DNA of 64,000 nucleotides. Origin: Candidatus Poribacteria bacterium (GTDB lineage: Bacteria > Poribacteria > WGA-4E > WGA-3G). Below, piece after piece: positions 24,068 through 63,973 of the stretch. The stretch lies in the NCBI GenBank assembly GCA_963664215.1, contig OY761015.1. One strand, 5' to 3'. The notes under the pieces were generated by a model. The model worked only from the letters and a program-made list of their open reading frames with translations. It was not told the origin of the DNA and did no database searches. Numbering within the stretch: the stretch's first letter is position 1; each line of letters begins with the position of its first letter. Both the position numbers and the translations under genes were made by a program.

Positions 24068-24392
24068 GGGTGGACCTTGCTGTCTTAACTCGGAATCGGA
24101 TCTGTTGACGAGTTGTGGCGTGAATCGTTATTGGAATGCCCCACGGACGGTGCCTTCATTTTCTTCACCGAGTTGCGCGTATTTCTCGAGTTCGGCGTAA
24201 TAGGTTTTGATGGGTTTATGAGTGGGTTTGATGTTGGGATCAGACATCTATGTTCTCCGTGTGTTCTTGGCATACAAAACGATACCCTATTATACACGGA
24301 GTCGGACGAAATTGCGAGGGGAATTTTGCTGTGGTCTGGATCAGGATTGATAGGATTAAATACACTTTTTTGAGTGTTAATGCCTTGGGAAG

Positions 24393-26864: not shown

Positions 26865-26915
26865 TTTTCGGATTCCATTCTATGAACTTGAACCAAAAGG
26901 CAGGCAACCAAATTT

Positions 26916-27797: not shown

Positions 27798-27863
27798 GTT
27801 TCCCTCTGAGGTAGTTGTTTTGTTACTCTACAATCCCAAGTGTACCATATACTTCCAAAAATA

Positions 27864-31361: not shown

Positions 31362-32292
31362 AATGCCTTTCTAAGAGTTTCATCAGGTTTAGATCGTTCC
31401 GTCGATAAACCTGTTTCAAACCTGCGGTTTCATCGTATTGTAGTGCTTCATTGGTAAGTTGCGCAAGATTTTCAAGATATGCTATCATTGTGTCTTCGTC
31501 TAACCTGAAGATTCGTCCAGGACTTAAGGGGGCGTACATCAGGTCTGAAAATGGTAGGGCATTCCTTTCAAAAAAACGGAGATCCCAAAATGCGACTAGC
31601 GTTGCTGTAAAAACCTCAGCTGGTAGTGTTCCTTTCTCACCTCGTTGGAATTCATACCCGTTACCTTCTGGTAATTCGGCGATTAGATTAAGCTCAACGA
31701 GTGGAGAGTCAAAACTCTCCTCAATTACGGCAGCGGTATGACGTGACTGGCAGTACGTTCGGATAAAGCAGTTGACATCGCGTTGAAGTGTATTATCAGA
31801 GATAGGTCTCATAGATGCTTTCTGTTGTTGTGCCCATTTGTATACCTCTTCCATGAATGTCGTTGGAACGAATTGATTTTTTCTCAAAACGTTAAATGCC
31901 CAATACCACGTGGTTGCCTGATTAATATTGGTCGCAATCTGCCAATGAATCAACCACAAAGTGGCAGGATCTTCAAGGTATGGATCAAACCCTTTTTTAT
32001 CGTTAAAAATGGCTTTGCCGAGTTTAGTCGGAACAAGCTTTCTACGCTGGTCGGGATCCACCTTAATAAGTCTAGCAACGGTACACCAATGTCGAATGGA
32101 GCTTACCATGTTTTTTCCAACGCCTAAAGTAACGAAAGCGTCTTCCGATGAAAAGACGGTCGGATTTTCTGTTACGGCATCAACACCCTTTTTCAGCCAT
32201 GTATACCGAAACGGAAAAGTCTGGTGCCCCGAGAAAGAAGGATTTGTCAACTGTGGTGAGATTGTGTGTTCAGTTATTAGGAAATTTTCCAT
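31354..32292 (-). CDS. DUF4007-family protein, SspB-like.
   Basis: N-terminal 'FSGHQTFPFRYTWLKKGVDAV' matches the DUF4007 conserved block (HxTFxxRYxWLxK). 312 aa. First gene of the four-gene operon. Confidence 0.55.
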   Translation of the reverse strand: MENFLITEHTISPQLTNPSFSGHQTFPFRYTWLKKGVDAVTENPTVFSSEDAFVTLGVGKNMVSSIRHWCTVARLIKVDPDQRRKLVPTKLGKAIFNDKKGFDPYLEDPATLWLIHWQIATNINQATTWYWAFNVLRKNQFVPTTFMEEVYKWAQQQKASMRPISDNTLQRDVNCFIRTYCQSRHTAAVIEESFDSPLVELNLIAELPEGNGYEFQRGEKGTLPAEVFTATLVAFWDLRFFERNALPFSDLMYAPLSPGRIFRLDEDTMIAYLENLAQLTNEALQYDETAGLKQVYRRNDLNLMKLLERHYG

Positions 32293-32343
32293 ATAACTTA
32301 TTATACTTTATGTGTGGAAGAGAAGTCAACACGCATTGAACAT

Positions 32344-33688: not shown

Positions 33689-34105
33689 CATTGAACATAT
33701 GCGAAGTGTCAGGGGCATTGTTTAAAAATCGTTTTCAATGAATACAAGTATCTGCTGTGAATATGCGGCGAAATAAGATGCTATTGACGCGGTAAACTTG
33801 TATTTCAAGACCCAATATCAAGAGGGCAGTATTTCGTAGCACCCCCATTACTGTTGCGACCACGCCCCTCTGAACTTAAGGACTTTAGATCGAAAACTAT
33901 ATACCCTTGGATTATTAATCTTTTTGTTGAGATTGTTTGGCAAATTTGGTATACTATTACCCTTGATTGTAGTAGGCCGTGATTAAGAAGTTTCCCCGTA
34001 CTTCTGCAATACTAATAGTTAAATAGATCCTCCAAATGGTGCGTTGATATTTCCTTTGTCTGATTAAGTTTCTTCATAGTTACGCCCTGACAGACAGGTT
34101 ACCAG

Positions 34106-35203
34106 ATGCCCAAATATGAAGCTGGAATCACAGAGATTAACACGCTTGTTCGCCGCCTCGGTTATGTTTCCGCAATTCTACGATTGCTTGAGCATAGAAC
34201 GCTAAGTGAATCTGTACTCTATACTCAACTTGAAAAATGGAGTCTCAATCATGAGCCAGATTTGATGGATTACGCGAATCAGCAAGGATACATTAAGGCG
34301 ACGCGCGGACAAGCTGCTCCAAGACGATACACTAATTTCGCTGTTTCGTTGGGAATTATAGGGCGAATCGCTGGCGCGTACCGTGTGACTCGATTTGGAA
34401 AGGCATTGCTTCCTTTCCTATGCCGAATTCCTGATCAAAATCCGTTTGAACTGACGAACGCGGAGTGCTGTGCCTATCTGTATTGGCTTCTGCTGAAGGA
34501 TAGCGATCGACTTCTTACAGTTATTCACATGTTAGTTGAACAAGAGACTTGCTCTCTTTCCGATTTGCAAAGTGCTTTCCCCGCGTTTTATCTTCAGCAA
34601 TTGCAAGCCCGGATGCTAACATCGGAAAAACATGTTGCTCGTGACATCTTGGCGGAACGGAACCGTGTGGCACATTGGAAAGAAGAATCAGGGCGTTCCA
34701 TGGAAAATGTTGTGCCACCACGCATTCATTGGTTGGCAGACCTCGGCTTGGTCTCAGTTGAGAATCATGGAAGGAGACGGTCTGGATTGACAGAAATGGG
34801 TGCCCGATTTTCTCAGTCTCTTCCAAAGATTCAAGAGATGCCGACTTTTCACACAAGTTCAAAGTGGTTGCGGACGCAATTCTTTGGCATTGCTGGACAG
34901 ATATTTATGGGCACAATTGATCGACGCTGGACGGAAATACATGATTTAGAAAAAAAAGAACTGCTTTACAAACTCACTTTTCAGGCTTTTGAAACGCTTC
35001 GGAGTACACCGACCCCGAAGATTTCTTTATATCCAGCACTCATTTATATGGCACTTCTTCTCACAACGGATAACGGAATAGCGGTGAATTTGGAGGAACT
35101 CCAGGCAGATTTAGATATGTTTTCCAAAGATCCTGATACACGCTATGCGGTCCGATTTTCCCATCGCGAGAATGAGTCCTACCTTATTTTTCTGCCTACC
35201 TAA
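34106..35203 (+). CDS. Hypothetical protein (365 aa), first gene of a three-gene operon.
   Basis: ORF with no recognisable motif. Overlaps the next gene in the operon. Confidence 0.5.
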   Translation: MPKYEAGITEINTLVRRLGYVSAILRLLEHRTLSESVLYTQLEKWSLNHEPDLMDYANQQGYIKATRGQAAPRRYTNFAVSLGIIGRIAGAYRVTRFGKALLPFLCRIPDQNPFELTNAECCAYLYWLLLKDSDRLLTVIHMLVEQETCSLSDLQSAFPAFYLQQLQARMLTSEKHVARDILAERNRVAHWKEESGRSMENVVPPRIHWLADLGLVSVENHGRRRSGLTEMGARFSQSLPKIQEMPTFHTSSKWLRTQFFGIAGQIFMGTIDRRWTEIHDLEKKELLYKLTFQAFETLRSTPTPKISLYPALIYMALLLTTDNGIAVNLEELQADLDMFSKDPDTRYAVRFSHRENESYLIFLPT

Positions 35204-35213
35204 CCGAAAACTT

Positions 35214-35843
35214 ATGGATATTCTAATTCCTGATACATCGTCCCTTATCAACATACATGAGGTTTATGTAGGGCGATCTCATATCATTGATGTTTTAAAT
35301 CAATTGTTCACTGTGCAAGTCTCGCGAGAGATACCGCATGAAATCAGGCGACGCAGGAATAAATTAGGAGACTACGACAAACAGATGTTGCAATTTGTGC
35401 GTCAAGCAAGGCGATATTTTCCGCATGAACAAGATTATGAAGATCTGCTTTTCAATCGATTTTCAACATCTAGCGACCCGACTCGCAATCGTGGGGAGCG
35501 TTATAATTGCGCGCTGGCATTTTATCTGGTTCGGAAACGGAGGATGGGGCAAGTTATTATACTGACAGATGATAGGAAGGCAAGGCGAGGTTTGATGGAT
35601 TGGTACGAGAATCGCTTCGCAGCGACAAGGACTTGGTCATCTTTGGAATTACTGTTGCATATCTATCTCGTTATGTTTCCAAAGTGGCCATACAATCGGG
35701 CTGAGTTGGCTTTACAACAGGTAAACCCTCACCTTGCTGGAACCCAAGTGGAGATGACGAAGCGTCTTCGTGAGTATCGCCGTTATCTCGAGCGGTTACA
35801 TGCTATGCTGAAAGCCTTGCCATCTGTAAGAAAAACGAGGTGA
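35214..35843 (+). CDS. PIN-domain-like protein, putative nuclease.
   Basis: N-terminal 'MDILIPDTSSLINI' (PIN motif 1, Asp) and 'VIILTDDRKA' (T-D-D motif). Start at ATG 35214. 4-nt gap to the next gene. Confidence 0.45.
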   Translation: MDILIPDTSSLINIHEVYVGRSHIIDVLNQLFTVQVSREIPHEIRRRRNKLGDYDKQMLQFVRQARRYFPHEQDYEDLLFNRFSTSSDPTRNRGERYNCALAFYLVRKRRMGQVIILTDDRKARRGLMDWYENRFAATRTWSSLELLLHIYLVMFPKWPYNRAELALQQVNPHLAGTQVEMTKRLREYRRYLERLHAMLKALPSVRKTR

Positions 35844-35846
35844 AAC

Positions 35847-37022
35847 ATGACATACTCCATTGATTGGAATTTAGCCGGTTTACGAGAAAATCCCTTTACA
35901 ATCAGTCCTCCAACTGATCCCAAGCAGACAACTTGGGCAGGCCTAAAAGAACTCAAAGGCGAATTTAAGAATGTCTTCCGAGAAACCAAAGCATCAGCAC
36001 CAACGCAGGTAGTATTATGTCGAGGAGCTATTGGGGCAGGTAAAACACATGCTTCACTTTTCTTTAGTTCTGACCAAAATATGCCTGAGGCATCACCGAG
36101 TGTTCAAAGTCTAGAAGTTCTAAGGGTTCAAACCCCTACTGAAACTGGGAATCCAGCGAGGGATTTTTATCTCGATGTCATAGATCAGATTGGACTTGAA
36201 CGTATAGCGGAATCGGTGAAAGAAGGTGTGGAATCTGTTGGACGGGATGTAGTAGAGCGAAATCTTCGTCAAACGGTGGTGAGTGGTGACTTCGTGAATG
36301 CGCTACTTAAGTTGTTTGAGGCTTCACCTATTTCTCCGGGGGCTGGCTTGCCTCTAAGTGCCTACTTCCTGGGCAAATGCACGACTACGGAATTGCGAAA
36401 ACTTGGCTTAAATCGAAACATTGAGAAAACACAAGATTACTTTCGAGTGTTAGCAGGCGTTTTTCACTGCCTTACGGGGTTATCTGAATCCTCTGATGTA
36501 ACTCAGCACAATCGATTCTGTCTATGGATAGATGAAATGGAGAATTTCATCTATTTTACACCGCCACAATACCGTCCCTTCGGACAGGGATTGCGTGAAC
36601 TCGTAGATCGGCTTCCCTACTTTTTCACACTTTTGATGAATTTTACGCTGACCGCGCCAGAGGAATATGAAGAAATTGAATTGATTCTGGGAGGCTATCT
36701 CACCGACCGGATTACCCGACAGATTTTCTTTCATGAAGTGAAAGATCAAGAAGAGTTGCTGCAATATGTCCGCGAACTTCTCTCTCACTACAGAACCGAA
36801 GAAAAACCCAAAACACCTTATTTTCCGTTTACAGAGGAGGGACTCCGGGCACTTCTGTCTAATTTGCAACATGGAACACCGAGAGACGTGAATAAGCGGT
36901 GTCGTAATGCCCTGATGCGAGCGTTTGAAAAAGGGATTTTTGAGAAAGGAAAGGGCTCCGTAATTACGCCTGAATTTGTACAGGAGATGACGCAGGAAGA
37001 ATTAGATAAAGAGTTTGGATAA
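35847..37022 (+). CDS. P-loop NTPase (ORC/Cdc6- or DUF2791/BrxD-like AAA).
   Basis: Walker A 'LCRGAIGAGKTHASLFF', Walker B-like 'FCLWIDEMENF'. 391 aa. Confidence 0.6.
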   Translation: MTYSIDWNLAGLRENPFTISPPTDPKQTTWAGLKELKGEFKNVFRETKASAPTQVVLCRGAIGAGKTHASLFFSSDQNMPEASPSVQSLEVLRVQTPTETGNPARDFYLDVIDQIGLERIAESVKEGVESVGRDVVERNLRQTVVSGDFVNALLKLFEASPISPGAGLPLSAYFLGKCTTTELRKLGLNRNIEKTQDYFRVLAGVFHCLTGLSESSDVTQHNRFCLWIDEMENFIYFTPPQYRPFGQGLRELVDRLPYFFTLLMNFTLTAPEEYEEIELILGGYLTDRITRQIFFHEVKDQEELLQYVRELLSHYRTEEKPKTPYFPFTEEGLRALLSNLQHGTPRDVNKRCRNALMRAFEKGIFEKGKGSVITPEFVQEMTQEELDKEFG

Positions 37023-37709
37023 GCGAGATCTCAATTCCCTTAAAGTGATTTATTACACATCGGAGGTAGGATAACCGCACTTATATGCTGGTTTGTATCC
37101 AGTACAACTTGCATTACGGAGATAACTTACTCCTTTTACAGACTTCCCCCGCGCGCCCCTCAGCAATTGCCTGTTCAATATCTGCCTGTGCTTCTTCTTC
37201 ACTCACTGCTGGCACTTTTTCCATATTCTATCTAATTACGATACGGTAATTCTATTTTTACATTCGTTTTTTTACGGAGAAGAGGCATATTGCGTCTTGG
37301 CAACCCACGGCCCGCCTATGCTGGTGAAAACCTCCGTGAAGCCTCCGTGAAAGTGAGGAGATTTCGATGCATTTATCGGAGGATGGACGATTATCTGTCT
37401 ACTGCCAAAAGAGTATTATGACTGCTATTGGATCCGTGTGAAAATTTCATAGCAATTTTCATAGCAGCTTTCACAGTACCCTTTGGTGAAAACTGCCTGA
37501 AACCCAATACACGTCAGGGTTTATCGCCTTTCACGACACCTGTTGATTTTTCGGGTTTGCTATGAAAACTGTGAAAATTCGGTTTCTAAGGGCACTGGCT
37601 TCGTCTAAGAAACGTGAGATCCGATAATTGCTTAAATCTAAATGCTTCTGTCCGACTTACAGGGGCATTTAGTTTTCCGAAATTATTGAGTTTCGGTCAT
37701 TGGAGGACC

Positions 37710-37752
37710 GCGCCCCTCCTCTGTAGGAGGGAACTCCGATTCCCGACTTTCC
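37710..37752. repeat. REP-like family D copy (CCTCCT-ctgt-AGGAGG hairpin plus CTCCGATTCCCGACT).
   Basis: Matches 23069-23120. Confidence 0.7.
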
Positions 37753-37891
37753 GCAGAAATTCGACAAAAAACTTAAAACTAAATGGTCCTGGTCCGAATT
37801 ACAGGGAAGATTGCGAAAGATGTAGAGGTGTGTTATACTGGAGACGAAACATTTCCGATACTTTTTTATTTTAGCGAGCGTTTACCCTACC

Positions 37892-38611
37892 ATGCACATC
37901 AATACACTCGATTACCCCTTAATCCATATCCCTGCTGGGACGTTCACAATGGGGACGATTCCCACCGGAATGCGGAAGACGGATCCGGAGGAACCGCAAC
38001 GCCGCGTCCTGCTCGATGCCTACGCCATCGGCGCGTACCAGATTACAAATGCACAATACGCACAGTTTGTGGAAGCGACGGGACATCCACAGCCGTTGTT
38101 CTCGACGGAAGAACATCTCAACGCCCCCGATTTTCCTGTCGTCGGGGTGAGTTGGCAGGATGCGACGAATTTTTTGGCGTGGCTCAACGGACTTGAAAAT
38201 GAGGAATATCGTTTGCCGTCAGAGGCGGAGTGGGAGAAAGCGGCACGCGGTACGGACGCTCGGGAGTATCCGTGGGGAGATATATGGGATGCGAGTCGAG
38301 CGAACACATCGGAATCGGGGAATAAGCAATTGGTACCTGTTGGGAGTTATCCTGAAGGTGTGAGTCCTTACGGGTGCTACGATATGGCGGGGAACGCTTA
38401 CGATTGGTGTAGCGACTGGTTTCACATGGAGACGTATAAGTACTCGCCTACGGAGAATCCGTTAGGGGCAAGTGAAGGTCGTCGTAAGGTGATTCGTGGG
38501 GGTTCCTGGATTGCCCGCGGTGAGTTCGCTGCAAGATGCGCCAACCGTGCGGCGTATGAACCCATCCAAGCCATTCATAGCGTCGGTTTTCGGATTGCCA
38601 GAGACCTTTAA
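37892..38611 (+). CDS. Formylglycine-generating enzyme (FGE/SUMF1) family protein.
   Basis: 'GTFTMGT', 'RLPSEAEWEKAARG', 'RGGSWIARGEFAARCANR', 'HSVGFRIARD' are canonical FGE-sulfatase motifs. Confidence 0.8.
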   Translation: MHINTLDYPLIHIPAGTFTMGTIPTGMRKTDPEEPQRRVLLDAYAIGAYQITNAQYAQFVEATGHPQPLFSTEEHLNAPDFPVVGVSWQDATNFLAWLNGLENEEYRLPSEAEWEKAARGTDAREYPWGDIWDASRANTSESGNKQLVPVGSYPEGVSPYGCYDMAGNAYDWCSDWFHMETYKYSPTENPLGASEGRRKVIRGGSWIARGEFAARCANRAAYEPIQAIHSVGFRIARDL

Positions 38612-50039: not shown

Positions 50040-50582
50040 ATGAGATATCGCCGTTCAAGAATCGAAGGCGCAACATACTTCTTCACTGTTAACACCCACA
50101 ATAGGAGACGTTTCCTGTGTATCCCGGAAAATGTAGAATTACTACGACAAGCATTTCGGCATACCTTGCAGCGACATCCAACACAAATTGAGGCTATTGT
50201 TTTGCTTCCTGATCACTTGCACTGCATCTGGACTTTACCTGAAGACGATGATAATTACTCAATGCGGTGGCGATTGATCAAGAGATTTTTCAGTCGTCAT
50301 TGCCAAGACGAGTACGAAGGCATTGTTTCCAAATCGCGACAAAGCAAACGAGAGCGCGCTTTTTGGCAACGCAAATTTTGGGAACACACGATCCGAGACA
50401 GTCGTGATTTTATCAAACATGTTGAATACATACATTACAATCCGGTTAAACACGGTTTAGTGGCCGCTCCAAAGGATTGGAAATATTCCAGTTTCCATCG
50501 TTATGTCAAATCGGGTTTATACGATGAAATGTGGGGGACGAGTGAAGAAATTGTGTTTGATTCCGATATCGGTAATGAATAA
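50040..50582 (+). CDS. REP-associated tyrosine transposase (RAYT; IS200/IS605-like Y1 HUH transposase).
   Basis: 'YFFTVNTHNRRRFL', HuH motif 'LPDHLHCIW', catalytic Tyr region 'YIHYNPVKHGLV'. 180 aa. Flanked by REPs in inverted orientation. Confidence 0.8.
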   Translation: MRYRRSRIEGATYFFTVNTHNRRRFLCIPENVELLRQAFRHTLQRHPTQIEAIVLLPDHLHCIWTLPEDDDNYSMRWRLIKRFFSRHCQDEYEGIVSKSRQSKRERAFWQRKFWEHTIRDSRDFIKHVEYIHYNPVKHGLVAAPKDWKYSSFHRYVKSGLYDEMWGTSEEIVFDSDIGNE

Positions 50583-54488: not shown

Positions 54489-54740
54489 CCCCAAGTTTAA
54501 TTTCGTAGGGGTAGGGTTTCCCCGCCCGATATACTGTGTTTACTTTCTGGAAGGATTCCCTTCTGTTTCTCGGGAACAGGCGATCGCGTTTTTAGACCTC
54601 GCATTGACCATAACCGTCGGTGTCCCGCCTGGCTAAGATTGTTTCAGAACATGATGCGTATCCTATAAACCCGGACAGGTACTCCACGTGACCGTTCGCA
54701 CGTAACCTATTTGCCGGTAGTGGAGACTGCGGAGGCGAAA

Positions 54741-56642
54741 ATGCAATTCCTGAACCCTGCCGCCTTTTATCTGCTCGGTGTTATTCCGATTGTGGTGGCA
54801 CTTCACTTTCTGAAATTGCGCCGCCACACCCATCTCGTTCCCAGTATTATGTTTTGGCTCTCCACTGACGAAGACCGGAGAGCGAATGTCCCCTTCCAAC
54901 GACTCCGCAACCTACTCCTCCCACTGCTACAAGTGCTGTTTTTGTTACTCCTGATCTTCAGCGTCGCGCGTCCCGCCCTCCGTAAACCCGGATTTATGCC
55001 CGGCAAAGCGATTCTTATCGTTGATAATTCCGCGAGCATGTCGTCAAAAGAGACCGGACAAACCCGACTCACACTCGCGAAACAGGGGGCACAGCAGTAC
55101 ATTCAAGAGGTGTCTGCGAGGGGCGGGATGATGCTCATGGTGACGAATTCCCCTGAAACCTATATCCAACACGCCTTTACAACGGATACCTCGAAACTCC
55201 ACCAAGCGATAGAGACTATCGCTCAGACCCATACCCCGCGTAATCTCCGTCCCGTGTTTGATGCCGCAACACGTTATGCGGATTCGCCGCAAGACAAGAT
55301 CGTCTTTATCAGTGGGACGTTTGAAAACATACCCGATATATCGCTACCGGTGCAAGAAATCGGAGTCGGTGGGAGTGCGGAGAATATCGGTATCGTTCGG
55401 TTCAGCGTTGAAATGTTAGACGGACGTTATGAGGTTCTCATCGGCATTCAAAATTTCACGGATACATCCACGGAATTAGACGTTCAATTGCTGGTGGAGA
55501 ATGTTCCTCTCGATGATAGAACGGTGTCAATTCCGCCGAATGAAACCAAATCAATCCTGTTTTCAGGGGATCCGAGCGGCTTAGAGGGAAAAGTGCTGAG
55601 CGGACACCTTGATATAGATGACGACTTTCCGTTGGATGACAGTGCTTGGGCACTCCTGTCTGCTATCCCGCAACTGCGGATTCTGCTTGTGAGTGACAAT
55701 CGAAAATCGTTGCTACCCGATCTTTTGAAATCTTATGGCGAGCACGTGAAATTATATGTGGTTGACCCGTCGGACTATCACGGCATTGCCGACGCGGATG
55801 TCGCAATTTTCGATGGTAGCACGTTCACCGGGCGCCAAGCTTTCGGAAATTTCGCTGAGACTGCCTCCGGATCGCATCTGGTTTTCATCGCACCCCGAAA
55901 TAACCTGCCTTACATCCAAGAAAACGCGTCGCTTGTTGAGACGGAGAGGACGCCTGTGCGCGTGATTAAGGAGGATGGAAATCACCCGCTCATGGAGAAT
56001 GTATCGCTGCGGGGACTACGGGTCAGTGAGTCTATGCACCGAGCGTTACCACTCTGGGGGCATTCGCTTGTTGAGACGGAGAAAGGGACGTTGATATGGC
56101 TCGGTAGCAGAGCGGACACCAGGCTCCTTGTTTTCGAGTTTGATGCGTTTAACCCCGAAATCTCTACCTTTGCGCTGACTGTCCCCGATGGACCGCAATT
56201 CGTCTATCAGTGTTTGGCGTGGCTTGAAGCCGGGACTGCTCCGTTGCAGCCGCGCCAGTCTCAAGAGAGTGGAACTCGGCACGCCTTCCGAACCGGAGAA
56301 CAGGTGCGCGTCGCGTTGCCACTTGACGGACGCACGCTTCACGTGCAGAGGCCTGATGAAACAACGGTTCAATTGGCGAATTCAGTGTTTACGGGGACGG
56401 ATCAGGTCGGGATCTATAGCCTTCTTGATGGTGATGTCCCGCTTGAGCGGTTCACTGTCAATCTGCTGAACGCGACGGAATCCGCACTCTCGCATTCTTC
56501 AACAGCATTGGTTACCGAGGCTTCGCTGGCGATAGTAGATGGATTGCAACCGATGGTGCAGGAGATATGGCGGTGGTTCGCACTTTCGGCGTTCCTGCTC
56601 CTCCTTTTGGAGTGGTGGTTTTACCATCGGAGTAGCGTGTAA
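54741..56642 (+). CDS. BatA-like aerotolerance-type protein: N-terminal double-TM domain plus vWA domain.
   Basis: 'MQFLNPAAFYLLGVIPIVVALHFLKLRR' (N-terminal double-TM domain family), vWA MIDAS 'ILIVDNSASMS'. Start at ATG 54741 with a GGAGG RBS. Confidence 0.7.
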   Translation: MQFLNPAAFYLLGVIPIVVALHFLKLRRHTHLVPSIMFWLSTDEDRRANVPFQRLRNLLLPLLQVLFLLLLIFSVARPALRKPGFMPGKAILIVDNSASMSSKETGQTRLTLAKQGAQQYIQEVSARGGMMLMVTNSPETYIQHAFTTDTSKLHQAIETIAQTHTPRNLRPVFDAATRYADSPQDKIVFISGTFENIPDISLPVQEIGVGGSAENIGIVRFSVEMLDGRYEVLIGIQNFTDTSTELDVQLLVENVPLDDRTVSIPPNETKSILFSGDPSGLEGKVLSGHLDIDDDFPLDDSAWALLSAIPQLRILLVSDNRKSLLPDLLKSYGEHVKLYVVDPSDYHGIADADVAIFDGSTFTGRQAFGNFAETASGSHLVFIAPRNNLPYIQENASLVETERTPVRVIKEDGNHPLMENVSLRGLRVSESMHRALPLWGHSLVETEKGTLIWLGSRADTRLLVFEFDAFNPEISTFALTVPDGPQFVYQCLAWLEAGTAPLQPRQSQESGTRHAFRTGEQVRVALPLDGRTLHVQRPDETTVQLANSVFTGTDQVGIYSLLDGDVPLERFTVNLLNATESALSHSSTALVTEASLAIVDGLQPMVQEIWRWFALSAFLLLLLEWWFYHRSSV

Positions 56643-56654
56643 TAGAAAATGAAA

Positions 56655-56684
56655 ACGGGCGGATACAGATATCCGCCCTTAGAT
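56655..56684. terminator. Bidirectional terminator hairpin GGGCGGATAcagATATCCGCCC between convergent genes.
   Basis: Seen directly. Confidence 0.6.
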
Positions 56685-56722: not shown

Positions 56723-58555
56723 TTATTTTATCACACTCAGAATCTTCTGGAGTAACTGGGCTTTTGGCTGCACGCCTCCAGAACGACTAACAGCCTTACC
56801 ACCTTGGAACACAATATAAGTAGGATGGGCCCTGACCTGATATTTCCCGGTTGTTTGTCGACTCTGAGCAACATTCATTTTCGCGACTGCAAACGTGTTC
56901 CGATTCTCTAAAGCAATTTGGGCGACAACTGGCGCCATCTGTTTACAGAACGGTCAGCCATCCTTCACAAACTCAACCACGACAGGTAGGTCTGCGTTAA
57001 GCACGAGGGAGTTAAACGTCGCATCTGTGACTTCAAAAGGAATGCCGGAGGTCTTAGGGGCAGTGGTGAACCGAATATCAATGTCGGTTGAGTTGCCAGC
57101 TGCATCACTGACTTTCCCCGCAATGACGTAGGTTATTTCGTTGCCGAGTTCTTTGCCTCTGACCAGTTCAAGCGTCCCTTTCTTGCCTTCAACTTTGCCA
57201 CGCCACCCCGCATCAACACCTGCTATGGTTCGCAGTACGATGTTGCCGGTTACTTCTTCGCTAAATTCAATTTGGATGGGGCCACCGAGGTGCAATGCTT
57301 CCGGATCAACGTCCTTGTCACCGTCATTGACGCTGCCGCTGGTAATTCTGGGTGCATCGGTGTCAGGTGCGGCGACGGTGTAATGGAGGGTCTGTTCACC
57401 ATCCGCCCAAGCGATTGTCAAAGCGAGGGGACCTGGATCGAAGGGACCCGTAATTCGCACCCGTTTGCCCGTGATTCGCGCCGTTCCTGTGTTGACAGTA
57501 ACGTCCTCTGGTGTGTTGTCAAAGGTAAGTGTGATGGTATCGTCGACAGCCAGTTCCGATTGAACTGCTGGATTTGCGCGCACGAACGCAGCGGGTGTTC
57601 TGATGGTGTAATTGAGCGTCTGGGTTCCATCTGCCCAAGCGACGGTCAAGACGAGTGCTCCTGGGTCGAAGGGACCTGCGATTTCCACAGTCTTGTCAGT
57701 GGCTGTAGCAGTGCCTGTACTCGCAGTAACGTCCTCTGGCGGATTATCAAAAATAAGTGTAATGGTATCGTCGACAGTGAGTTTTGAATCGGTTGCTGGA
57801 TTTGCGCGCACGAACGCAGCGGGTGTTCTGATGGTGTAATTGAGCGTCTGGGTTCCATCTGCCCAAGTGACCGTCAGTGTGAGTGCTCCTGGTTCGAAGG
57901 GACCCCTGATTGACACGGTTTTGTCGGTGACTGTAGCGACACCCGTACTCACTGTAACGTCTTCTGGTGGGTTGTCGAAGATAAGTGTGATGGTATCGTC
58001 TACAGCGATTTTAGAGTTGCCTGCTGGATTCGCGCTCACGAACGCTGCGAGGGGTCTGATGGCATAGTTGAGCGTTTCGGTTCCATCTACCCAAGTGACC
58101 GTCAGTGTGAGTGCTCCTGGTTCGAAGGGACCCCTGATTGACACGGTTTTGTCGGTGACTGTAGCGACACCTGTATTCACCGTAACGTCCTCTGGTATGT
58201 TGTCAAAGGTGAGGGTAATGGTATCGTCCACGGTCAACTGCGAGCCGATGACTGGATTCGCGTGAATGAACATTACAGGTGCGCTGACTGTTTGACCCAA
58301 ATGGCTTGCGACGCCGGTCAAGTCAAGTATATTGACGGTGCCGTCCCCGTTGACATCCGGGTTAGGGGTCTGATCTGCGGCGGGTGTCGTGCCGAAGTTT
58401 GCGGCGACAAGCGTCAGATCGAGAATGTTTATCACGCCATCGGCATTGACATCGGATGCTCTTAAGGCATCGAGATCCGCATCTTGTGTGTAGCCTACGG
58501 TTAAATGCGTGAGGAGTAAACAGGTCGTTAGAAATAAAAAGGTGATTTTTCTCAT
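56723..58555 (-). CDS. Probable selenoprotein: secreted dockerin-like repeat pair, then four Ig-like repeats, then a C-terminal thioredoxin-fold domain with a U-P-F-C motif (in-frame TGA at 56954-56956).
   Basis: The track splits this into ORFs 56954-58555 and 56723-56938, both in one frame around a single TGA. Read through, the protein is '...VVVEFVKDG-U-PFCKQMAPVVAQIALENRNTF...PTYIVF', aligning with the CxxC paralog 'VVVYFWADWCPPCKWMAPIIKEVASEYKETF...PTFIVF' at 60242-60985. Confidence 0.6.
57380..58290. repeat. Four tandem, near-identical 228-bp coding repeats (Ig-like modules) inside the selenoprotein gene.
   Basis: Periodic ORFs on the + strand at 57612, 57840 and 58068 with near-identical translations. 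The protein repeats '...TLTVTWxDGTxTLNYxIRxPAAFV'. Confidence 0.75.
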
Positions 58556-59169
58556 TTTTTCTCCTCCGTTTCTCCAATCTCTAAGATTCCGAGGATGCGT
58601 TGCACCAATTCAGCCTTAGGCATAGCTCCGATGAAGCCTTGAACAATTTCTCCATCTTTGAATACGATATAAGTGGGCGTTCCGCGAATGCGATATTCAG
58701 CGGTTTTCTCAGGTTGGGTATTTACATCCAACTTGACAAAGCTGAAGCTCTCTCGGTATTCCAATGCGACTTCTGCGACCACCGGGCGCATCAATATGCA
58801 AAAGGGTCAGGTATCGTCTTTAAATTCTACCACAATCGGTAGTTCAGAATCCAAGACGATGGTATCAAACGTTGCATCCGTGACTTCAAACGGGATACCC
58901 GATCTCTGACCAAAATGGCTTGCGACGCGAGTCAAATCGAGGATATTGACGGTGTTGTCCCCGTTGACATCCGGGTTAAGGGTTTGATCTGCAGTGGGTG
59001 TCGTACCGAGATGTGCGGCGACGAGTGTCAAATCAAGGATGTTTACCACGCCATCGATGTTGACATCAGATGCTTGTAGTTGTTCAAGGTTCGTCTCTTG
59101 TGTGTAGCCTACAGTGAAATTGGTCAGTATTAAACAGATCGTTAAAAATAAAAAGGTGATTTGTTTCAT
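58552..59169 (-). CDS. Probable selenoprotein: secreted dockerin-like repeat pair plus thioredoxin-fold domain with a U-P-F-C motif (in-frame TGA at 58807-58809).
   Basis: ORFs 58807-59169 and 58552-58794 are contiguous in one frame across a TGA. The protein reads '...IVVEFKDDT-U-PFCILMRPVVAEVALEYRESF...PTYIVF'. Confidence 0.6.
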
Positions 59170-59188
59170 CTATTTTTCCGTAGATGGT

Positions 59189-60229
59189 TTATGCTTGTGC
59201 CTTGTGCCATTCTTGAACCGCTTCGGGGATCGCTTGCAGATTTTCGATTGTCGTTTGAAGTGGGATCGCGCACTCGGGTCCGATGAGCGGTACGCCCGCA
59301 TCAAGGTTTTTGACGACCTCCGCTTTGACGTCTTCCGGTTCTTTAGAAAACAGCGTCTCTGGGTTATTGATATTGCCGACAAGGGCAATCCGCTCCTGAA
59401 CAATATCCATAGATTCCTGCGGTTCATTTTTAGAATCGAAGTGGAAGGCGGACATGCCGGTTTGCGCGATGTATTCCATTCTGTCAACCGTGCGACCACA
59501 AATGTGCAGGATTAAAGGGATAGGGATACGTTCAACAAATTCAATGTGGAGGTCTCGAAGGTAACGTTGGTAGTATTCGCCGCTGACAAGATCGCCTGTG
59601 GCGTGGTCGGGAAGTGTGAGTGCGTCGGCACCTGCCTCAATTTGTGCGACTCCGAACTGCACAGTGGCTTCCTTCATCCGATCGAGGGCGAGTTTCGTTT
59701 TACCGGGGTCGTCAAGTGAGAGCAACAGGAAGGGTTCAACCCCGAAGCAGTGATAACCGAGCGACCAGGGTCCCATCGTTTTACCGATAACAGCGACGTC
59801 ATCGCCGTATTCTTTTTTCAAGATTTTAATCGCTTCCAAGACGCACTGGGTGTCTGGGTGTGTCAAGAAGTCGTCCGGGACAACGATATCGTCAACATCT
59901 TCCCAGATCGGTTCTCGCATTCTCACGGTGGGCCAGTTGTCCTTCTGTTCCCACTGAATGTTGCAACCGAGTGCGCTGGATTCTTGGATAATCGTGAAAA
60001 CGGGCATAATGGTATCAAACCCGAGTTCGGTGTATCCGGTAGCGGCGAGGCGTGCCATGAGTTCCGGTTCCCGATTTGCCTGTGGGAAGGGCGCATCAAC
60101 GAGATCCATCAGTTCAACCGTAGCGACGGAGGTGGGATTACAGATAGGTGTTCGATCGGTCGGTTCGTTGTTAAGCGCGGCGAGCACCCGTTCACGACCT
60201 GTCATAGATTTAAGTGTTTGGTTCTGCAT
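59189..60229 (-). CDS. Uroporphyrinogen decarboxylase (URO-D)/MtaA-like methyltransferase family protein.
   Basis: 'GRERVLAALNNEPTDRTPI', 'GFDTIMP', and URO-D-family architecture. 346 aa. Confidence 0.7.
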   Translation of the reverse strand: MQNQTLKSMTGRERVLAALNNEPTDRTPICNPTSVATVELMDLVDAPFPQANREPELMARLAATGYTELGFDTIMPVFTIIQESSALGCNIQWEQKDNWPTVRMREPIWEDVDDIVVPDDFLTHPDTQCVLEAIKILKKEYGDDVAVIGKTMGPWSLGYHCFGVEPFLLLSLDDPGKTKLALDRMKEATVQFGVAQIEAGADALTLPDHATGDLVSGEYYQRYLRDLHIEFVERIPIPLILHICGRTVDRMEYIAQTGMSAFHFDSKNEPQESMDIVQERIALVGNINNPETLFSKEPEDVKAEVVKNLDAGVPLIGPECAIPLQTTIENLQAIPEAVQEWHKAQA

Positions 60230-60241
60230 CGTTGGGTTCCT

Positions 60242-60985
60242 TCAATTTGCTTCGGCGTTTATTGCTTGACGAATGCGATGGACGAGGCCGACTTTCTGCA
60301 TTCCACCGACGAACCGTCCAATTATCTTTCCATTTCTAAACACGATGAAAGTCGGAATCGCTTGAATCCGATATTTGTGGAAGGTCAGTCGATTTCTATC
60401 GGCGTCCAGCTTTGCGATGAGGAAAGTTTCCTTATATTCAGAGGCAACCTCTTTGATAATGGGTGCCATCCATTTGCAGGGCGGACACCAGTCTGCCCAA
60501 AAATAAACCACAACGGGTAACTCCGCTTCCATGACCCGTTCCGTGAAGTTTTCATCAGTGACATTAAAAGGAGACTGCGTTAGTTGTGGTGTGCTCTCCG
60601 TTTCTTTAACGGGCTCTTCGGCGTCTATAAATATGCTCGGAACGGGAGCTGTAACGGTATACGTGAGTGTTTGTTCACCATTTGCCCAAGTGATGGTGAG
60701 AGTAAGTTCACCTTCCGTGAAGGGTCCGTTGATCGTAATAGTTTTACCAAAAATAAGGGTTTTGCCTATTTTTCCAGTACTTGCCCGGACTGTTATATCT
60801 CCAGGTGCGTTATCAAAGTTAAGCGTGATGGTTCCATCTGCTGGAATCTTACCGTCTGCTGGGATCGCGCTCACCAATACTGCGACCGGGATTTCTGCGT
60901 CTTCATCGGAACTCGTGCAGCTAACTATATGGACAGCGAGTAAGGATACGATCACTATGGATAAGACTCTCAGAAAAAGATTCAT
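60242..60985 (-). CDS. Secreted thioredoxin-fold protein (CPPC active site) with one N-terminal Ig-like module; the Cys-containing paralog of the two TGA-containing genes.
   Basis: Signal peptide 'MNLFLRVLSIVIVSLLAV'. 'WADWCPPCKWMAPI' thioredoxin motif and 'AIPTFIVF' cis-Pro region. Confidence 0.75.
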   Translation of the reverse strand: MNLFLRVLSIVIVSLLAVHIVSCTSSDEDAEIPVAVLVSAIPADGKIPADGTITLNFDNAPGDITVRASTGKIGKTLIFGKTITINGPFTEGELTLTITWANGEQTLTYTVTAPVPSIFIDAEEPVKETESTPQLTQSPFNVTDENFTERVMEAELPVVVYFWADWCPPCKWMAPIIKEVASEYKETFLIAKLDADRNRLTFHKYRIQAIPTFIVFRNGKIIGRFVGGMQKVGLVHRIRQAINAEAN

Positions 60986-61272
60986 CCGAATTCCTCTTTC
61001 GCGAAGAATAACTATCTGCAATAATACCACAGATCTGTTTTAATTACCAGAGAAATGACAGACGGCGTTCAAGAGGGAAAGAAGAAAAAGATCACAAACG
61101 CTACGTGAAAAAGATATTTTGTCAGGCAATGATTTACAACTGTAGAAGGCTCTCCGATTCCGATTCTACCTCGTGACTCCCACAGTTTATGCTGCAGACA
61201 TATTGAAAAATCTACCACAATTCTGTTGACACGTCTGCACGAATAACGTATACTTTATGAAAAGGAAGACTA

Positions 61273-62901
61273 GTGGAGAAAAGGAACATGAGACGTTTTG
61301 GCACCGAAGGACGTTTGTATCTTGAGGATAATTATGTTGTCCCACGCACAGGAGAGACAACCGATTTCATTGATCGCGTCAAACAGGGCAAATACATCGT
61401 GCTTTTCGCACCGCGCCAGACGGGCAAAACGACCTTTTTTCGATTGGCACTTGAAGGACTCACGACTGAGGATTTAACCTACTTCCCAATCCAACTCAAC
61501 TTTGAGGAGTCCGAAGACGATACCGCTGCTGATTTTTACCGAGGTCTCTCCGAAGATATTCGTGAAGAAATAGAAACTGTTTTTCAAGGACGTGGCGAGG
61601 TACTGGCTGAAGCACTCATAAAATTTCTGAAGGACACCGAGATAACTGACCACAGAGCGATGAGAAGGTTTTTTGCCCAACTGGCTCGTTTTCTTGAGTC
61701 GCACTATGGAACTCAGCAGAAAGTTGTGCTTCTCATCGACGAATTTGATGCGATTCCACAGTCGGCTGTCAAGGGTTTTCTACGGTCGCTGCGCTATATT
61801 TACCTTTCCGGTAAGACGCGATGCCCCCACAGCGTCGGCATTGTCGGTGTCAAGAACATCGTCCAACTTGGCTACGACAGATCCATCTCTCCCTTCAATA
61901 TCCAGCAGGAATTTCATTTACCAAACTTCACATCTGAACAGGTCGAGGAACTGCTTTCGCAGTATACTGAAGAAGTCGGACAAGGGTTCGCGCCTGAGGT
62001 CGTCATGTCTATTCACAAACAGACTGCGGGTCAACCTGTACTTGTTAATCGGTTGGCGCAGATTCTGACTGAGGAGATGGACATCCCGAAAACTGAGACG
62101 ATTACGATGGAACACTGGACGGCGGCACATACACGGCTCCTTCACAGCAGGAACACGAACATTGAGCATCTGACAACAAATATCCGAAAAGACCCGCGTT
62201 TTGAGAAAGTCCTCATGAGAATCACGGCATCCGATGAGGGCGTACCGTTCAATCTACACGATGAAATCATCGATAAACTCACGACTTATGGAGTTATCTC
62301 CAAAGGTGCGGACGGTCTCTGTAATATTGCCAATCCGATCTATCTATATGCTATTTTGCAAGCGTTCAAGCCGACGGTGAACGGATTAGAGGCGGAATAC
62401 TTCCCTGAAGACGACCTCACGGGTTTCAGGGCGTATCTCACAGACACCGGACAAATCGCCATGGAGCCGTTGCTTGACAACTTCCGAGACTTCATCGCAC
62501 GGGCAGGCTTTCGGATCCTGCAAGTGCCACAGACGCCAAAAGAATCGGTTGGTCGTCACCTCCTCCTGGCGTATCTTGACCAGTTCGTGCAAACGATAGG
62601 AGGGAGTCTGTACCTGGAAGTCCAAACCGGGCGGGGTCGGATTGATGTTCTCATCACACACAACAGAGAAAAATATATCGTTGAAACAAAGATTTGGAGA
62701 GGTCAGGCACGCTATGAAGCCGGCAAACAACAACTCGCTGCCTACCTCACATCGGAAGGCACTGACACGGGCTACTACATCGTCTTCGATCACCGCCAAA
62801 ACCCTGAACCTCGCGCGGAGACTGAGACCCTAAACGGGTTAACACTCCGGAGTTATGTGATACCTGTGGTGCAAGAACGCCCGTCAATCACTTCAGAATG
62901 A
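61273..62901 (+). CDS. AAA-ATPase-like plus PD-(D/E)xK nuclease-like protein; second paralog.
   Basis: 'MRRFGTEGRLYLEDNYVVPR...IVLFAPRQTGKTTFF' and C-terminal 'GRGRIDVLITHNREKYIVETKIW'. About 60% identical to 42025-43647. Confidence 0.75.
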   Translation: MEKRNMRRFGTEGRLYLEDNYVVPRTGETTDFIDRVKQGKYIVLFAPRQTGKTTFFRLALEGLTTEDLTYFPIQLNFEESEDDTAADFYRGLSEDIREEIETVFQGRGEVLAEALIKFLKDTEITDHRAMRRFFAQLARFLESHYGTQQKVVLLIDEFDAIPQSAVKGFLRSLRYIYLSGKTRCPHSVGIVGVKNIVQLGYDRSISPFNIQQEFHLPNFTSEQVEELLSQYTEEVGQGFAPEVVMSIHKQTAGQPVLVNRLAQILTEEMDIPKTETITMEHWTAAHTRLLHSRNTNIEHLTTNIRKDPRFEKVLMRITASDEGVPFNLHDEIIDKLTTYGVISKGADGLCNIANPIYLYAILQAFKPTVNGLEAEYFPEDDLTGFRAYLTDTGQIAMEPLLDNFRDFIARAGFRILQVPQTPKESVGRHLLLAYLDQFVQTIGGSLYLEVQTGRGRIDVLITHNREKYIVETKIWRGQARYEAGKQQLAAYLTSEGTDTGYYIVFDHRQNPEPRAETETLNGLTLRSYVIPVVQERPSITSE

Positions 62902-63973
62902 GCATCCGCCGTGTCGCAGTGAAATCGCCTGCGGTGAGCGTATAGAAATAGACGCCACTCGCCACGGGTTCACCGGCTTCATTCTTCCCATCCCAATACG
63001 CCGCGCGGGCTCTGCTATGGTAAATCCCCGCAGGTTGATGTCCCAACGCCAATGTCCGCACTAACATTCCATTCACAGAATAGATGCGCAATATCACCTC
63101 CGCTGGCTTTGCCAACTGATACGGTATCCACGTTTCGGGGTTGAATGGGTTTGGATAGTTGGGTAATAGCGATGTTTCTTTGGGAATTAACGCCGCCAAC
63201 AGTTGTTCAAGTATCAGAATGCCTCGTTGAGAGGTAGCATCTGTGAGGGTTATCTGCTGTGCTTGCGTGAGCCACTGTCGCACATCTGCAGCGGTGAGTA
63301 TTTCCAATGTTTGAGGAAGTGCTGAGGGTGCGGCTGCACCAGCCCCCAGCTCGGCAGCAACTTTGACGAGATCGACAATATTGACAACACCATCGCCATT
63401 GACATCTGCGACATTTTGTCCTGTCTTTCCGAAGTTAGCCGATATCAATACCAGATCTAAGATGTTGACTATACCATCGCCGTTGACATCTTCAGACACT
63501 ACTGGGTCAGTTGGGGGTTTATAGACGGCGTTTACGTCCGCATCAATACCAACGAACATGCTCCACCAACCGCGCCAATTACTGACTTTCACAAGCAAGA
63601 GGTTATCCCCTTGTTTCAAATCAACTGTGAATTTGTCCTGAAAATCCTCTGCACCGCGATCTATAGGGTTGTTGTGGACAACTTCACCGTTGAGCCATAC
63701 CTTGATGGCATCATCACTGCCAGTTCTCATTGTAACATCGGACCGCGCTGTAGCGGATTCAAGCGTGATAAGGGCATAAGAGGAGTGATGTTCCACATTG
63801 CCGCTACCGAAGCCAATTTTATTCAGAAGGTCATTGACATTATTACCACCGGTTTCAGCAATCTTCGTAAGTGTCCACATATAATTACCGACTGCATCAC
63901 CTTCTCTGGCACCATTTGTTGTGACATCCGTCTCTGTTACAGCACCATTGCTAACTTCAGCAAGTGAATCCAC
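62888..63973 (-). CDS. Secreted protein with a LamG/jelly-roll-like N-region, dockerin-like repeats and a T9SS-type C-terminal sorting domain; the N-terminus may lie beyond the window end.
   Basis: 'DVNGDGIVNILDLVLI' and 'DVNGDGVVNIVDLVKV' dockerin-type repeats. C-terminal 'NYPNPFNPETWIPYQL...IYSVNGMLVRTL...GVYFYTL...RRMLILK' matches the Por secretion tail. Confidence 0.65.
   Translation of the reverse strand: MDSLAEVSNGAVTETDVTTNGAREGDAVGNYMWTLTKIAETGGNNVNDLLNKIGFGSGNVEHHSSYALITLESATARSDVTMRTGSDDAIKVWLNGEVVHNNPIDRGAEDFQDKFTVDLKQGDNLLLVKVSNWRGWWSMFVGIDADVNAVYKPPTDPVVSEDVNGDGIVNILDLVLISANFGKTGQNVADVNGDGVVNIVDLVKVAAELGAGAAAPSALPQTLEILTAADVRQWLTQAQQITLTDATSQRGILILEQLLAALIPKETSLLPNYPNPFNPETWIPYQLAKPAEVILRIYSVNGMLVRTLALGHQPAGIYHSRARAAYWDGKNEAGEPVASGVYFYTLTAGDFTATRRMLILK

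Follow-up and report, generated by a model that had tools for sequence, protein, structure and literature searches.

Tandem thioredoxin-fold genes with a conserved in-frame TGA, probable UxxC selenoproteins carrying dockerin modules, in Candidatus Poribacteria

Results

Organization of the locus

We analyzed a stretch of 64,000 nucleotides (the window, whose first letter is position 1) of contig OY761015.1, from the Candidatus Poribacteria bacterium assembly GCA_963664215.1, and focused on two adjacent genes, here called A and B, in each of which one TGA interrupts the reading frame; we propose this TGA to be a selenocysteine (Sec) codon. The region 61030–56723 of the minus strand contains four tightly packed genes, in the order C, a methyltransferase gene of the MtaA/CmuA family, B, and A. 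Gene C (60242–60985, minus strand), a paralog with Cys at the corresponding site, is separated by 12 nt from the methyltransferase gene (60229–59189, 346 aa), which is in turn separated by 19 nt from gene B (58552–59169, minus strand); the TGA stop of gene B overlaps the start of gene A (56723–58555, minus strand) in the sequence ATGA.

Read through the internal TGA, gene A encodes a 610-residue protein in which a signal peptide and a type I dockerin are followed by four beta-sandwich repeats of 76 aa, another beta module, and a thioredoxin domain whose active site is G-U-P-F-C (U, Sec). The 205-residue read-through protein of gene B comprises a signal peptide, a type I dockerin, and a thioredoxin domain with the active site T-U-P-F-C, and its real stop is a TGA. 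Gene C encodes a lipoprotein-type signal (…HIVSC, lipobox IVSC), one beta-sandwich repeat of the immunoglobulin-like (Ig-like) type, and a thioredoxin domain with the motif WCPPC, and it ends at a genuine TGA stop.

The in-frame TGA in the thioredoxin active site

In gene A, the TGA lies at 56954–56956 (minus strand) in the context ...VVVEFVKDG-TGA-PFCKQMAPV... and is followed by 76 codons up to a TAA; in gene B, it lies at 58807–58809 (minus strand) in the context ...IVVEFKDDT-TGA-PFCILMRPV... and is followed by 84 codons up to a TGA. The product up to the internal TGA counts 533 aa for gene A and 120 aa for gene B. At the same site, gene C reads VVYFWADWCPPCKWMAPI, with the active site WCPPC.

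A preliminary description of this stretch, made from the letters alone, had noticed the two pairs of open reading frames (ORFs) split by a single TGA and proposed that read-through would restore a thioredoxin active site. The sequences agree with this proposal, as do the Pfam searches, which were performed with U written as C. Indeed, the Thioredoxin model PF00085 matched across the TGA both in gene A (residues 508–605, 56741–57034, minus strand; E-value 3.5e-19, 69.1 bits) and in gene B (residues 95–192, 58594–58887, minus strand; 8.4e-20, 71.2 bits), and it matched gene C with 98.6 bits (2.5e-28), against a Pfam gathering cut-off of 23.5. Moreover, the three thioredoxin domains could be aligned without gaps over 106 residues (identities: A–B 51%, A–C 42%, B–C 43%), with the TGA placed exactly on the first Cys of the gene C CxxC motif, as previously noticed. 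The nucleotide pattern TGA-CCx-TTy-TGC, attributed in the same description to both genes, is found in gene B, while gene A has TGA CCG TTC TGT and thus ends on TGT instead of TGC.

The fold was examined on the AlphaFold2 model of a Cys-containing homolog (P0002), a protein 71% identical to the gene B product and not itself encoded in the window. The predicted local distance difference test (pLDDT) values of its thioredoxin domain ranged from 85 to 96. The order of its elements, beta1-alpha1-beta2-alpha2-beta3-alpha3-beta4-beta5-alpha4, is the one expected for the thioredoxin fold, with C121 immediately preceding the helix 122–137. The best Foldseek matches of this model in the PDB were solved classical thioredoxins (TrxA), with template modeling (TM) scores of 0.92–0.94, a root-mean-square deviation of ~1 Å, and 30–38% identity. 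On this structural model, the domain would thus be a thioredoxin proper, not a DsbA or a TlpA. The Pro of the cis-Pro loop is kept in the three domains as HPT, TPT, and IPT.

Membership of the canonical TrxA/TrxC group was assessed with the NCBIfam models TIGR01068, NF006898, and NF008229, together with the presence of a WCGPC active site. Genes A and B scored 69.6 and 69.4 bits with TIGR01068, below the equivalog cut-off of 96.8, and they present the motifs G-U-P-F-C and T-U-P-F-C; they therefore encode thioredoxin-fold proteins and not the housekeeping TrxA. Coherently, their domains lack the Trp of WCGPC, contain a glutaredoxin-like P-F dipeptide, and have Glu in place of the buried Asp26 of the Escherichia coli thioredoxin.

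Signal peptides, dockerins, and beta-sandwich modules

The N-termini of the A and B proteins are typical signal peptides (MRK/MKQ-ITFLFL...GYTQ). Both are followed by a dockerin of type I, recognized by PF00404 (Dockerin_1, cut-off 22.9 bits) at residues 34–85 of gene A (58301–58456, minus strand; E-value 1.2e-10, 41.9 bits) and at residues 34–84 of gene B (58918–59070, minus strand; 5.7e-12, 46.1 bits). The duplicated calcium-binding repeats can be recognized in the sequence as DVNADGVINILDL and DVNGDGTVNILDL, and none is present in gene C.

Between the dockerin and the thioredoxin domain, gene A contains four tandem repeats of 76–78 aa (57365–58282, minus strand), which have a 228-bp period at the DNA level and are predicted to form a seven-strand beta sandwich with an Ig-like/CopC-like fold; a fifth beta module follows them. 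Tandem Repeats Finder delimited the 228-bp repeat at 57495–58228, with 3.2 copies and 84% matches. The AlphaFold2 model of the repeats had a pLDDT of 92, and Foldseek returned weak similarity to CopC/PcoC, to Ig domains, and to the S-layer protein SbsC. A copper-chaperone role of these repeats was considered and rejected: the CopC/PcoC hits are weak (E-value ~1e-3, 17–19% identity) and the repeats are devoid of His or Met ligands. Across the gene A orthologs, 428–637 codons precede the TGA, so the number of repeats varies and appears to expand and contract among species. The preliminary description assigned both dockerin-like and Ig-like modules to each of the three proteins, which must be corrected: gene B has a dockerin and no Ig-like module, gene C has the Ig-like module and no dockerin, and only gene A has both.

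No cohesin appeared among the listed neighboring genes, where no search directed at cohesins was made. Among the related loci collected, L019–L030, L032, L038, and L052 were matched through their dockerin repeats only; given so many such matches, dockerin-like modules look like a common device of surface proteins in Poribacteria. A further dockerin of type I is present within the window in a 361-aa protein (62888–63973, minus strand), together with a C-terminal FlgD_ig/CHU_C domain resembling those of type IX secretion. Literature searches combining Poribacteria with dockerin or cohesin retrieved nothing relevant, and no relevant link emerged from a search for selenoproteins with a dockerin.

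Conservation of the TGA and Cys/Sec exchange among Poribacteria

The protein search with the read-through gene B sequence as query retrieved 409 relatives, and the named entries were “hypothetical proteins” of Candidatus Poribacteria. More than 80 database clusters have a length of 120–121 aa and finish with ...VEFKDDT or ...VEFKSDx, that is, exactly at the TGA. A smaller set comprises proteins of ~190–220 aa that are continuous across the site and have Cys there (e.g., ...VEFKSDTCGFCILMRPIV...; also ...VEFKSDTCGFC...). Both Cys columns are invariant in all 14 full-length Cys-form homologs, and WCPFC is the Cys form of the gene A site in related full-length homologs.

The scan of species-representative genomes identified 18 orthologous loci, all from metagenome-assembled genomes of Poribacteria, several of which are closed chromosomes of 5–6 Mb. 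At the site of interest, the gene B ortholog has TGA in 16 of the 18 and TGC in the remaining two; in eight further assemblies, TGA was found in seven and TGT in one. Overall, the TGA of gene B is kept in 23 other Poribacteria loci and that of gene A in 19 (24 and 20, respectively, with the copies of the window), and the complete chromosomes carrying TGA forms include OX639992.1, OZ242349.1, OY764016.1, OZ242310.1, and OZ246958.1. The recurrence of the same TGA in the same column in 23 gene B and 19 gene A orthologs is far beyond chance. A scan of metagenome contigs for additional orthologs returned unrelated dockerin matches only.

Gene B has Cys in lineages represented by OZ251518.1 and PYJE01. 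A Cys codon (TGC or TGT) occupies the site in the gene B orthologs of L017, L018, and L116; in L116, gene B has Cys (TGT) and gene A has TGA on one contig. The interchange of Cys and Sec at this column, which the preliminary description had indicated as a check on homologs, is therefore observed, both in these three loci and in the 14 Cys homologs.

The public gene calls divide every TGA form into a “hypothetical” or “Dockerin_1” protein of 120 aa and a “Thioredoxin” protein of 76 aa starting at the Met six codons past the TGA (for example, F4X10_15265 and JT359_08430, the public clusters P0006–P0120, and the loci L109–L115). As for the surrounding organization, gene C was found in only a part of the related loci (L002, L003, and L059). 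The gene order is reversed among Poribacteria clades: A precedes B in L010 and L012–L016, and B precedes A in the clade of the window (L001–L009 compared).

Selection downstream of the TGA and genetic code

Past the TGA, all orthologs have an open frame of 76–84 codons that ends at a stop, with no other stops and no frameshifts. We compared the ratio of nonsynonymous to synonymous substitution rates (dN/dS, Nei-Gojobori method) on the two sides of the codon. In family B, this ratio was 0.115 downstream (46 codons) and 0.104 upstream (27 codons) over 171 pairs, and in family A it was 0.277 downstream and 0.234 upstream over all pairs; dS was 0.8–1.1 in both families, near saturation. Amino-acid selection also acts on the five codons that separate the TGA from the following Met: position +2 is always aromatic, and position +3 is an invariant Cys, encoded by either TGC or TGT. 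The Met that comes next, at +6, is invariant as well. Since the Cys is maintained while its two codons alternate, the stretch from the TGA to the next ATG must itself be translated.

An open frame under purifying selection equal to that acting upstream argues against both a pseudogene and a separate downstream gene. This agrees with the original proposal that selection acts on the TGA: dN/dS is 0.1–0.3 on both sides and the open frame is conserved. Homologs with a genuine stop followed by a separate downstream gene, which had been named as the observation that would overturn the proposal, were not seen, the downstream frame being conserved under equal selection.

Elsewhere in the window, TGA terminates 12 of the 46 long non-overlapped ORFs, genes B and C among them. 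The code is thus the standard one, and a single mRNA bears both recoded and terminating UGAs. Codes 4 and 25, already judged unlikely when TGA was seen to act as an ordinary stop, are excluded by this count. We also looked through the window and the related loci for further in-frame TGAs next to a redox motif, and none was conserved; in the window, the two thioredoxin genes alone have a credible in-frame TGA. A recurring “SFCSH*ILQPS” was rejected as a further in-frame TGA, as it corresponds to the antisense frame of the MtaA gene.

Candidate hairpins downstream of the TGA

Bacterial selenocysteine insertion sequence (bSECIS) elements have, by consensus, a loop of 3–9 nt with a G in the first two loop positions and a spacing of 16–37 nt from the UGA (PMC13188914, Fig. 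2). The RNAalifold analyses of the two families identified a candidate in each of them, with loops that start 22–26 nt past the UGA and have a G in their first two positions, with G or U after it, which fits this consensus.

In gene B, the candidate is an imperfect hairpin of 36 nt (58765–58800, minus strand) that begins 7 nt past the UGA and has the apex UGCGCCC[GGU]GGUCGCA, with the loop starting 22–23 nt past the UGA; the apex for the family is UGCGACC[GGU]GGUCGCA. Across family B, 91% of the pair cells are standard, compared with 24–65% when the partners are slid, and five pairs vary, each through a single change compatible with G-U pairing. The minimum free energy (MFE) of the 36-mer ranges from −7.4 to −16.5 kcal/mol in clade 1 and is −9.5 for the copy of the window, in which a C.U mismatch moves the loop to CGGU. 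The copy of the window and those of clade 1 present all four of the bSECIS features considered.

In gene A, the candidate core (56921–56936, minus strand) is GGCG-C-C[AGUU]G-U-CGCC, with a stem of 4–6 bp and the apical loop 23 nt past the UGA. Among 18 distinct sequences of this family, 84% of the cells are paired in the six-pair version, and the four outer pairs hold. Variants of the stem include a G-U pair in L014, U-G in L009 and L011, a mismatch in L012, and a compensatory change from C-G to U-A in L111. The C.U mismatch is replaced by an A-U pair in L011 and L012, owing to a Pro-to-Thr codon change, and the stem there is continuous, with an AGUU loop. These changes alter residues (A to V, A to T, P to T), and pairing is kept or improved. 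Moreover, the third bases of the codons for P+8, V+9, and V+10 are invariant in family A, compared with 0 of 10 comparable four-fold sites elsewhere (Fisher test, p=0.011), which is a constraint at the RNA level; in family B, the third-base entropy is lowered at codons +8 to +10.

The Cys forms offer a further comparison. In 9 of the 14 full-length Cys-form homologs, Ile replaces the Val at +9, and its codon was AUU or AUC in all three Cys-form gene B loci for which DNA was read. Such a codon removes the loop G, and the stem persists in L116. The loss of the loop G in Cys forms follows the same pattern as that reported for Sec- versus Cys-type hydrogenases (PMC13582414). No hairpin was found after the active-site TGT of gene C. 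With its gene B retaining the stem without the loop Gs, L116 belongs with the related loci to a natural series in which Sec/Cys exchange and SECIS decay can be followed.

The preliminary description had placed stem-loops 15–40 nt downstream of each TGA. The position was right, and so was the GGCG..CGCC stem of gene A; the conserved apical hairpin of gene B is UGCG(A/C)CC-GGU-GGUCGCA, instead of the wider pairing ATGCG..CGCAT. Judging from these sequence comparisons, a SECIS element is probable in gene B and plausible in gene A.

Other genes and features of the window

The gene between C and B (59189–60229, minus strand) passes the NCBIfam models of the MtaA/CmuA family of the URO-D superfamily, namely NF004889 (264.5 bits, cut-off 244) and TIGR01463 (250, cut-off 235.4), and scores 66.9 bits with the hemE model TIGR01464, for which the cut-off is 302.95. 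The earlier label of “URO-D-like” is therefore replaced by that of an MtaA/CmuA methyltransferase. The gene lacks a signal peptide, and its synteny with B and A extends across Poribacteria; from its family, a corrinoid-dependent methyl transfer (with methylated amines or methanol) is a possible function.

A perfect hairpin of nine pairs, GC-rich and with T-rich runs on both strands, is present at 56657–56678 between gene A and the convergent BatA/VWA gene (54711–56642). It looks like a bidirectional intrinsic terminator, and it likely marks the end of a C-MtaA-B-A transcription unit.

At greater distance, a region of ~14 kb (~24000–38000) has a G+C content of 0.40–0.45, compared with ~0.48–0.53 elsewhere, and includes very long ORFs (27864–31361, 1165 aa; 24393–26864, 823 aa); this region is possibly an island gained by horizontal transfer. 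An IS200-like Y1 transposase (50040–50582, plus strand; PF01797, E-value 2e-6) adjoins genes for a polysaccharide deacetylase, a methyltransferase, a BacA undecaprenyl-diphosphatase, and a Laminin_G_3 protein. Finally, two neighboring paralogs on the minus strand (20137–20976 and 20986–21720) both end in ...PPSIGRRPRV(I/V)EEN-TGA, followed by the similar sequence SNLVRL(K/E)TAPT; the shared ends and flanks point to a recent tandem duplication that included the intergenic region.

Discussion

Evidence for and against Sec insertion

The results indicate that A and B are very probably genuine selenoprotein genes, in which UGA is read as Sec within a thioredoxin active site. The Cys/Sec pairs, the selection downstream of the TGA, the standard genetic code, and the conserved hairpins all support this interpretation, which had been put forward as probable in the preliminary description.

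Several results weigh against it. The first group concerns the machinery for Sec insertion: the genes for tRNA-Sec, SelA, SelB, and SelD were not found in the 64-kb window or in ~0.7 Mb of related loci. ARAGORN detected zero tRNAs in the window and in 33 Poribacteria loci, and tblastn searches of the window and all loci with the E. coli SelA, SelB, and SelD proteins gave a single real match, in L027, where the SelB-like hit is the EF-Tu of a fusA-tuf-rplC cluster and was discarded. The Rfam scan of the whole window matched no SECIS or tRNA-Sec model. The support for the machinery comes from published tables of Clusters of Orthologous Groups (COG) and concerns other Poribacteria only: COG1921 (SelA), COG3276 (SelB), and COG0709 (SelD) are tabulated for Poribacteria bin44, bin70, and WGA3G (Slaby et al. 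2017, PMC5649159, Table S4). The same study notes an enrichment of SelA and SelB in the symbionts of sponges (PMC5649159), and Sec-type group 4 hydrogenases are listed for nine phyla, one of which is Poribacteria (PMC13582414). Nothing specific emerged from a wide search of the literature for Poribacteria together with selenium.

The second group concerns the hairpins. When the 67–87 nt after each TGA were folded as single sequences, they were indistinguishable from shuffled ones (z −0.2 to −1.2), so the case for the hairpins comes entirely from the comparison between genomes. Here, the covariation is weak and not significant: the stem of family B is without any double-sided (compensatory) change, and the one double change of family A was equalled in 81–91 of 500 shuffles. 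The core of family A reaches just −4.5 kcal/mol, and it conforms to the consensus geometry and to the loop-G rule only if a single C-G pair closes the AGUU loop. In clade 2 of family B (L010 and L012–L016), the hairpin is weak (−4.7 to −5.7 kcal/mol) and in a different register, with CUGU[GGUC]ACAG as the best apex. Furthermore, the conserved peptide M-x-P-V-V could account for part of the nucleotide conservation. Lastly, sequence features are the basis of what we suggest below about the export, docking, and enzymatic role of the two proteins.

Alternative explanations of the TGA

The alternative that survives best is that the UGA is read through with insertion of a residue other than Sec: Cys, carried by a SelC*-type tRNA(ReC) or an allo-tRNA acting with SelB and the hairpin, or Trp or Cys, inserted by near-cognate suppression, so that the Cys product would be an ordinary CxxC thioredoxin. 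It is true that the TGA, the open frame, and the hairpin, being comparative data, speak for recoding and not for the identity of the residue. Moreover, tRNA(ReC)-like genes occur in 13–17% of surveyed genomes and, according to the work cited there, can decode UGA with a SECIS (PMC13582414). Nevertheless, we consider this explanation improbable. A Cys product would be obtained more simply from TGC or TGT, which some lineages do have, and the retention of TGA in ~40 orthologous genes at a dS of ~1 implies an advantage beyond that of Cys. In addition, SelA and SelD, which make Sec, are tabulated for Poribacteria (PMC5649159), and no tRNA(ReC)-type tRNA was detected by ARAGORN in the window or in the 33 Poribacteria loci.

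Alternatively, the TGA could be a true stop, and each gene could produce two polypeptides: a dockerin-bearing piece ending after beta2 and a piece of 76 aa starting from the ATG six codons on. The public gene calls present precisely this split, the Met at +6 is invariant, and the insertion of Sec in bacteria is never fully efficient, so that some truncated product also arises. However, the two pieces are always in one frame and exactly five codons apart, with those codons under amino-acid selection, and both would lack part of the redox motif and part of the fold. Cys homologs also occur as one full-length chain, and a Met is normal at the +6 position of thioredoxins (C-x-x-C-K-M in the E. coli thioredoxin). 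The two-polypeptide explanation is hence even harder to sustain than the previous one, and we give it very little credit.

Decaying pseudogenes, or sequencing or assembly errors, would usually be suspected for a lone in-frame stop in one window, but they have a negligible probability here: the same TGA recurs in independent assemblies of many species, long-read complete chromosomes included, without further stops or frameshifts and with dN/dS of 0.1–0.3 on either side, and this possibility was already refuted above. Equally negligible is a genetic code in which TGA is sense, Trp (code 4) or Gly (code 25), for which nothing speaks beyond the in-frame TGAs themselves; the termination of 12 of the 46 long ORFs by TGA (B and C included) had already refuted it, and homologs have Cys at this position and neither Trp nor Gly.

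A proposed mechanism

If UGA is read as Sec in A and B, the two proteins would be exported thiol:disulfide oxidoreductases in which the attacking, N-terminal residue of the redox motif is Sec (U-P-F-C). What we infer here extends from selenium insertion, SelB dependence, export, and docking to the substrate, the direction of electron flow, and the electron donor. Recoding would follow the standard bacterial route: the hairpin within the coding region, whose loop lies 22–26 nt downstream of the UGA, would recruit the SelB.GTP.Sec-tRNASec complex to the ribosome, and the TGA codons at the ends of genes C and B, without such a hairpin, would lead to termination. Signal peptides of the Sec secretion type would direct the export of both proteins, and the calcium-binding dockerin would anchor them to a partner located at the envelope or the surface of the cell. 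The stalk of Ig-like beta-sandwich repeats in the gene A protein would keep the catalytic domain off this anchor. In an oxidizing milieu outside the cell, Sec would be well suited to thiol-disulfide exchange, as it has a low pKa, is highly nucleophilic, and resists irreversible over-oxidation.

A more far-reaching and rather doubtful possibility is that Poribacteria have surface selenoenzymes in the form of dockerin-tagged Sec-thioredoxins on Ig-like stalks, which plug into cohesin-type scaffolds as an extracellular redox module. If so, the module may reduce or reshuffle the disulfides of host proteins (sponge matrix) or of particle-derived proteins, or detoxify host oxidants, and Sec would have been selected for continued function in oxygenated seawater. 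To our knowledge, a scaffolded extracellular assembly of selenoproteins has no prior description.

Comparison with known systems

The UxxC thioredoxin of PF00085 is an experimentally verified selenoprotein family (Kim et al. 2015, in PMC13188914, Table 1). A and B share with it the fold, Sec as the first residue of the CxxC motif, a UGA followed by a hairpin just downstream in the coding sequence, and the existence of Cys orthologs elsewhere. The organism of the verified protein is reportedly Treponema denticola. That thioredoxin is small, cytoplasmic, and single-domain, whereas A and B have a signal peptide and a dockerin, with five beta-sandwich modules in addition in A. They also differ in the context [TG]-U-P-F-C without the Trp of WCGPC, in the Glu replacing the buried Asp26, and in the lineage, Poribacteria.

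UxxC families with a thioredoxin fold have also been predicted with high confidence among the thiol:disulfide interchange proteins (PF13098) and the DsbA-like, DsbG-like, and TlpA- or redoxin-type proteins (PMC13188914, Table 1). A and B resemble the Dsb/TlpA-type families in being extracytoplasmic thioredoxin-fold proteins, as far as their sequences indicate, and in having been predicted with the same logic of Cys/Sec pairs. The Cys homologs of the PF13098, DsbA-like, DsbG-like, and TlpA-type families are periplasmic. In these families, however, the domain contains insertions and none of those listed is described with a dockerin, whereas the A and B domain is a classical thioredoxin without insertion.

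With respect to the bSECIS model of Zhang and Gladyshev (PMC13188914, Fig. 2), the candidates of A and B are similar in being hairpins of the coding sequence with an apical loop of 3–4 nt at a spacing of 22–26. The loops are GGU or CGGU in family B, GGUC in its clade 2, and AGUU in family A, and most family B elements have an MFE of −7.5 kcal/mol or lower. The E. coli fdhF element has a GGUC loop. Unlike the model, the core of family A is weak, with a C.U mismatch below the closing pair in most sequences, and the two clades of family B use different registers. Similarly, the dockerins have the two F-hand-like repeats (DVNxDGxVNILDL) of cellulosome-type dockerins (PF00404), with the module above the Pfam threshold, and differ from these in their cargo, a redox domain and not a glycoside hydrolase.

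The preliminary description called the arrangement unusual. This is only partly so, since UxxC thioredoxins and exported thioredoxin-fold selenoproteins were already known as families (PMC13188914). The new elements are the architecture of signal peptide, dockerin, and Ig-like modules, the phylum in which it occurs, the presence of a Cys paralog next to tandem Sec paralogs, and the misannotation; the recoding mechanism is a textbook one, and the knowledge of how Sec is inserted is unchanged by these genes.

Implications

For genome annotation, A and B represent a family that is wrongly split throughout the phylum. No NCBIfam selenoprotein model captures it; the fix is simple, and the family would be a good seed for a selenoprotein model in NCBIfam or Pfam. 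The tandem Sec paralogs, the Cys paralog of the same operon, and the reversion in L116 make a compact system for the study of Sec/Cys exchange and SECIS decay. If the two genes are read as proposed, Poribacteria, prominent symbionts of sponges, would join the lineages with a conserved thioredoxin-type selenoprotein, which supports the reported enrichment of SelA and SelB. The architecture of the proteins points to a scaffold-tethered selenium redox chemistry outside the cytoplasm, and this may bear on how the symbionts handle the matrix or the oxidants of their host.

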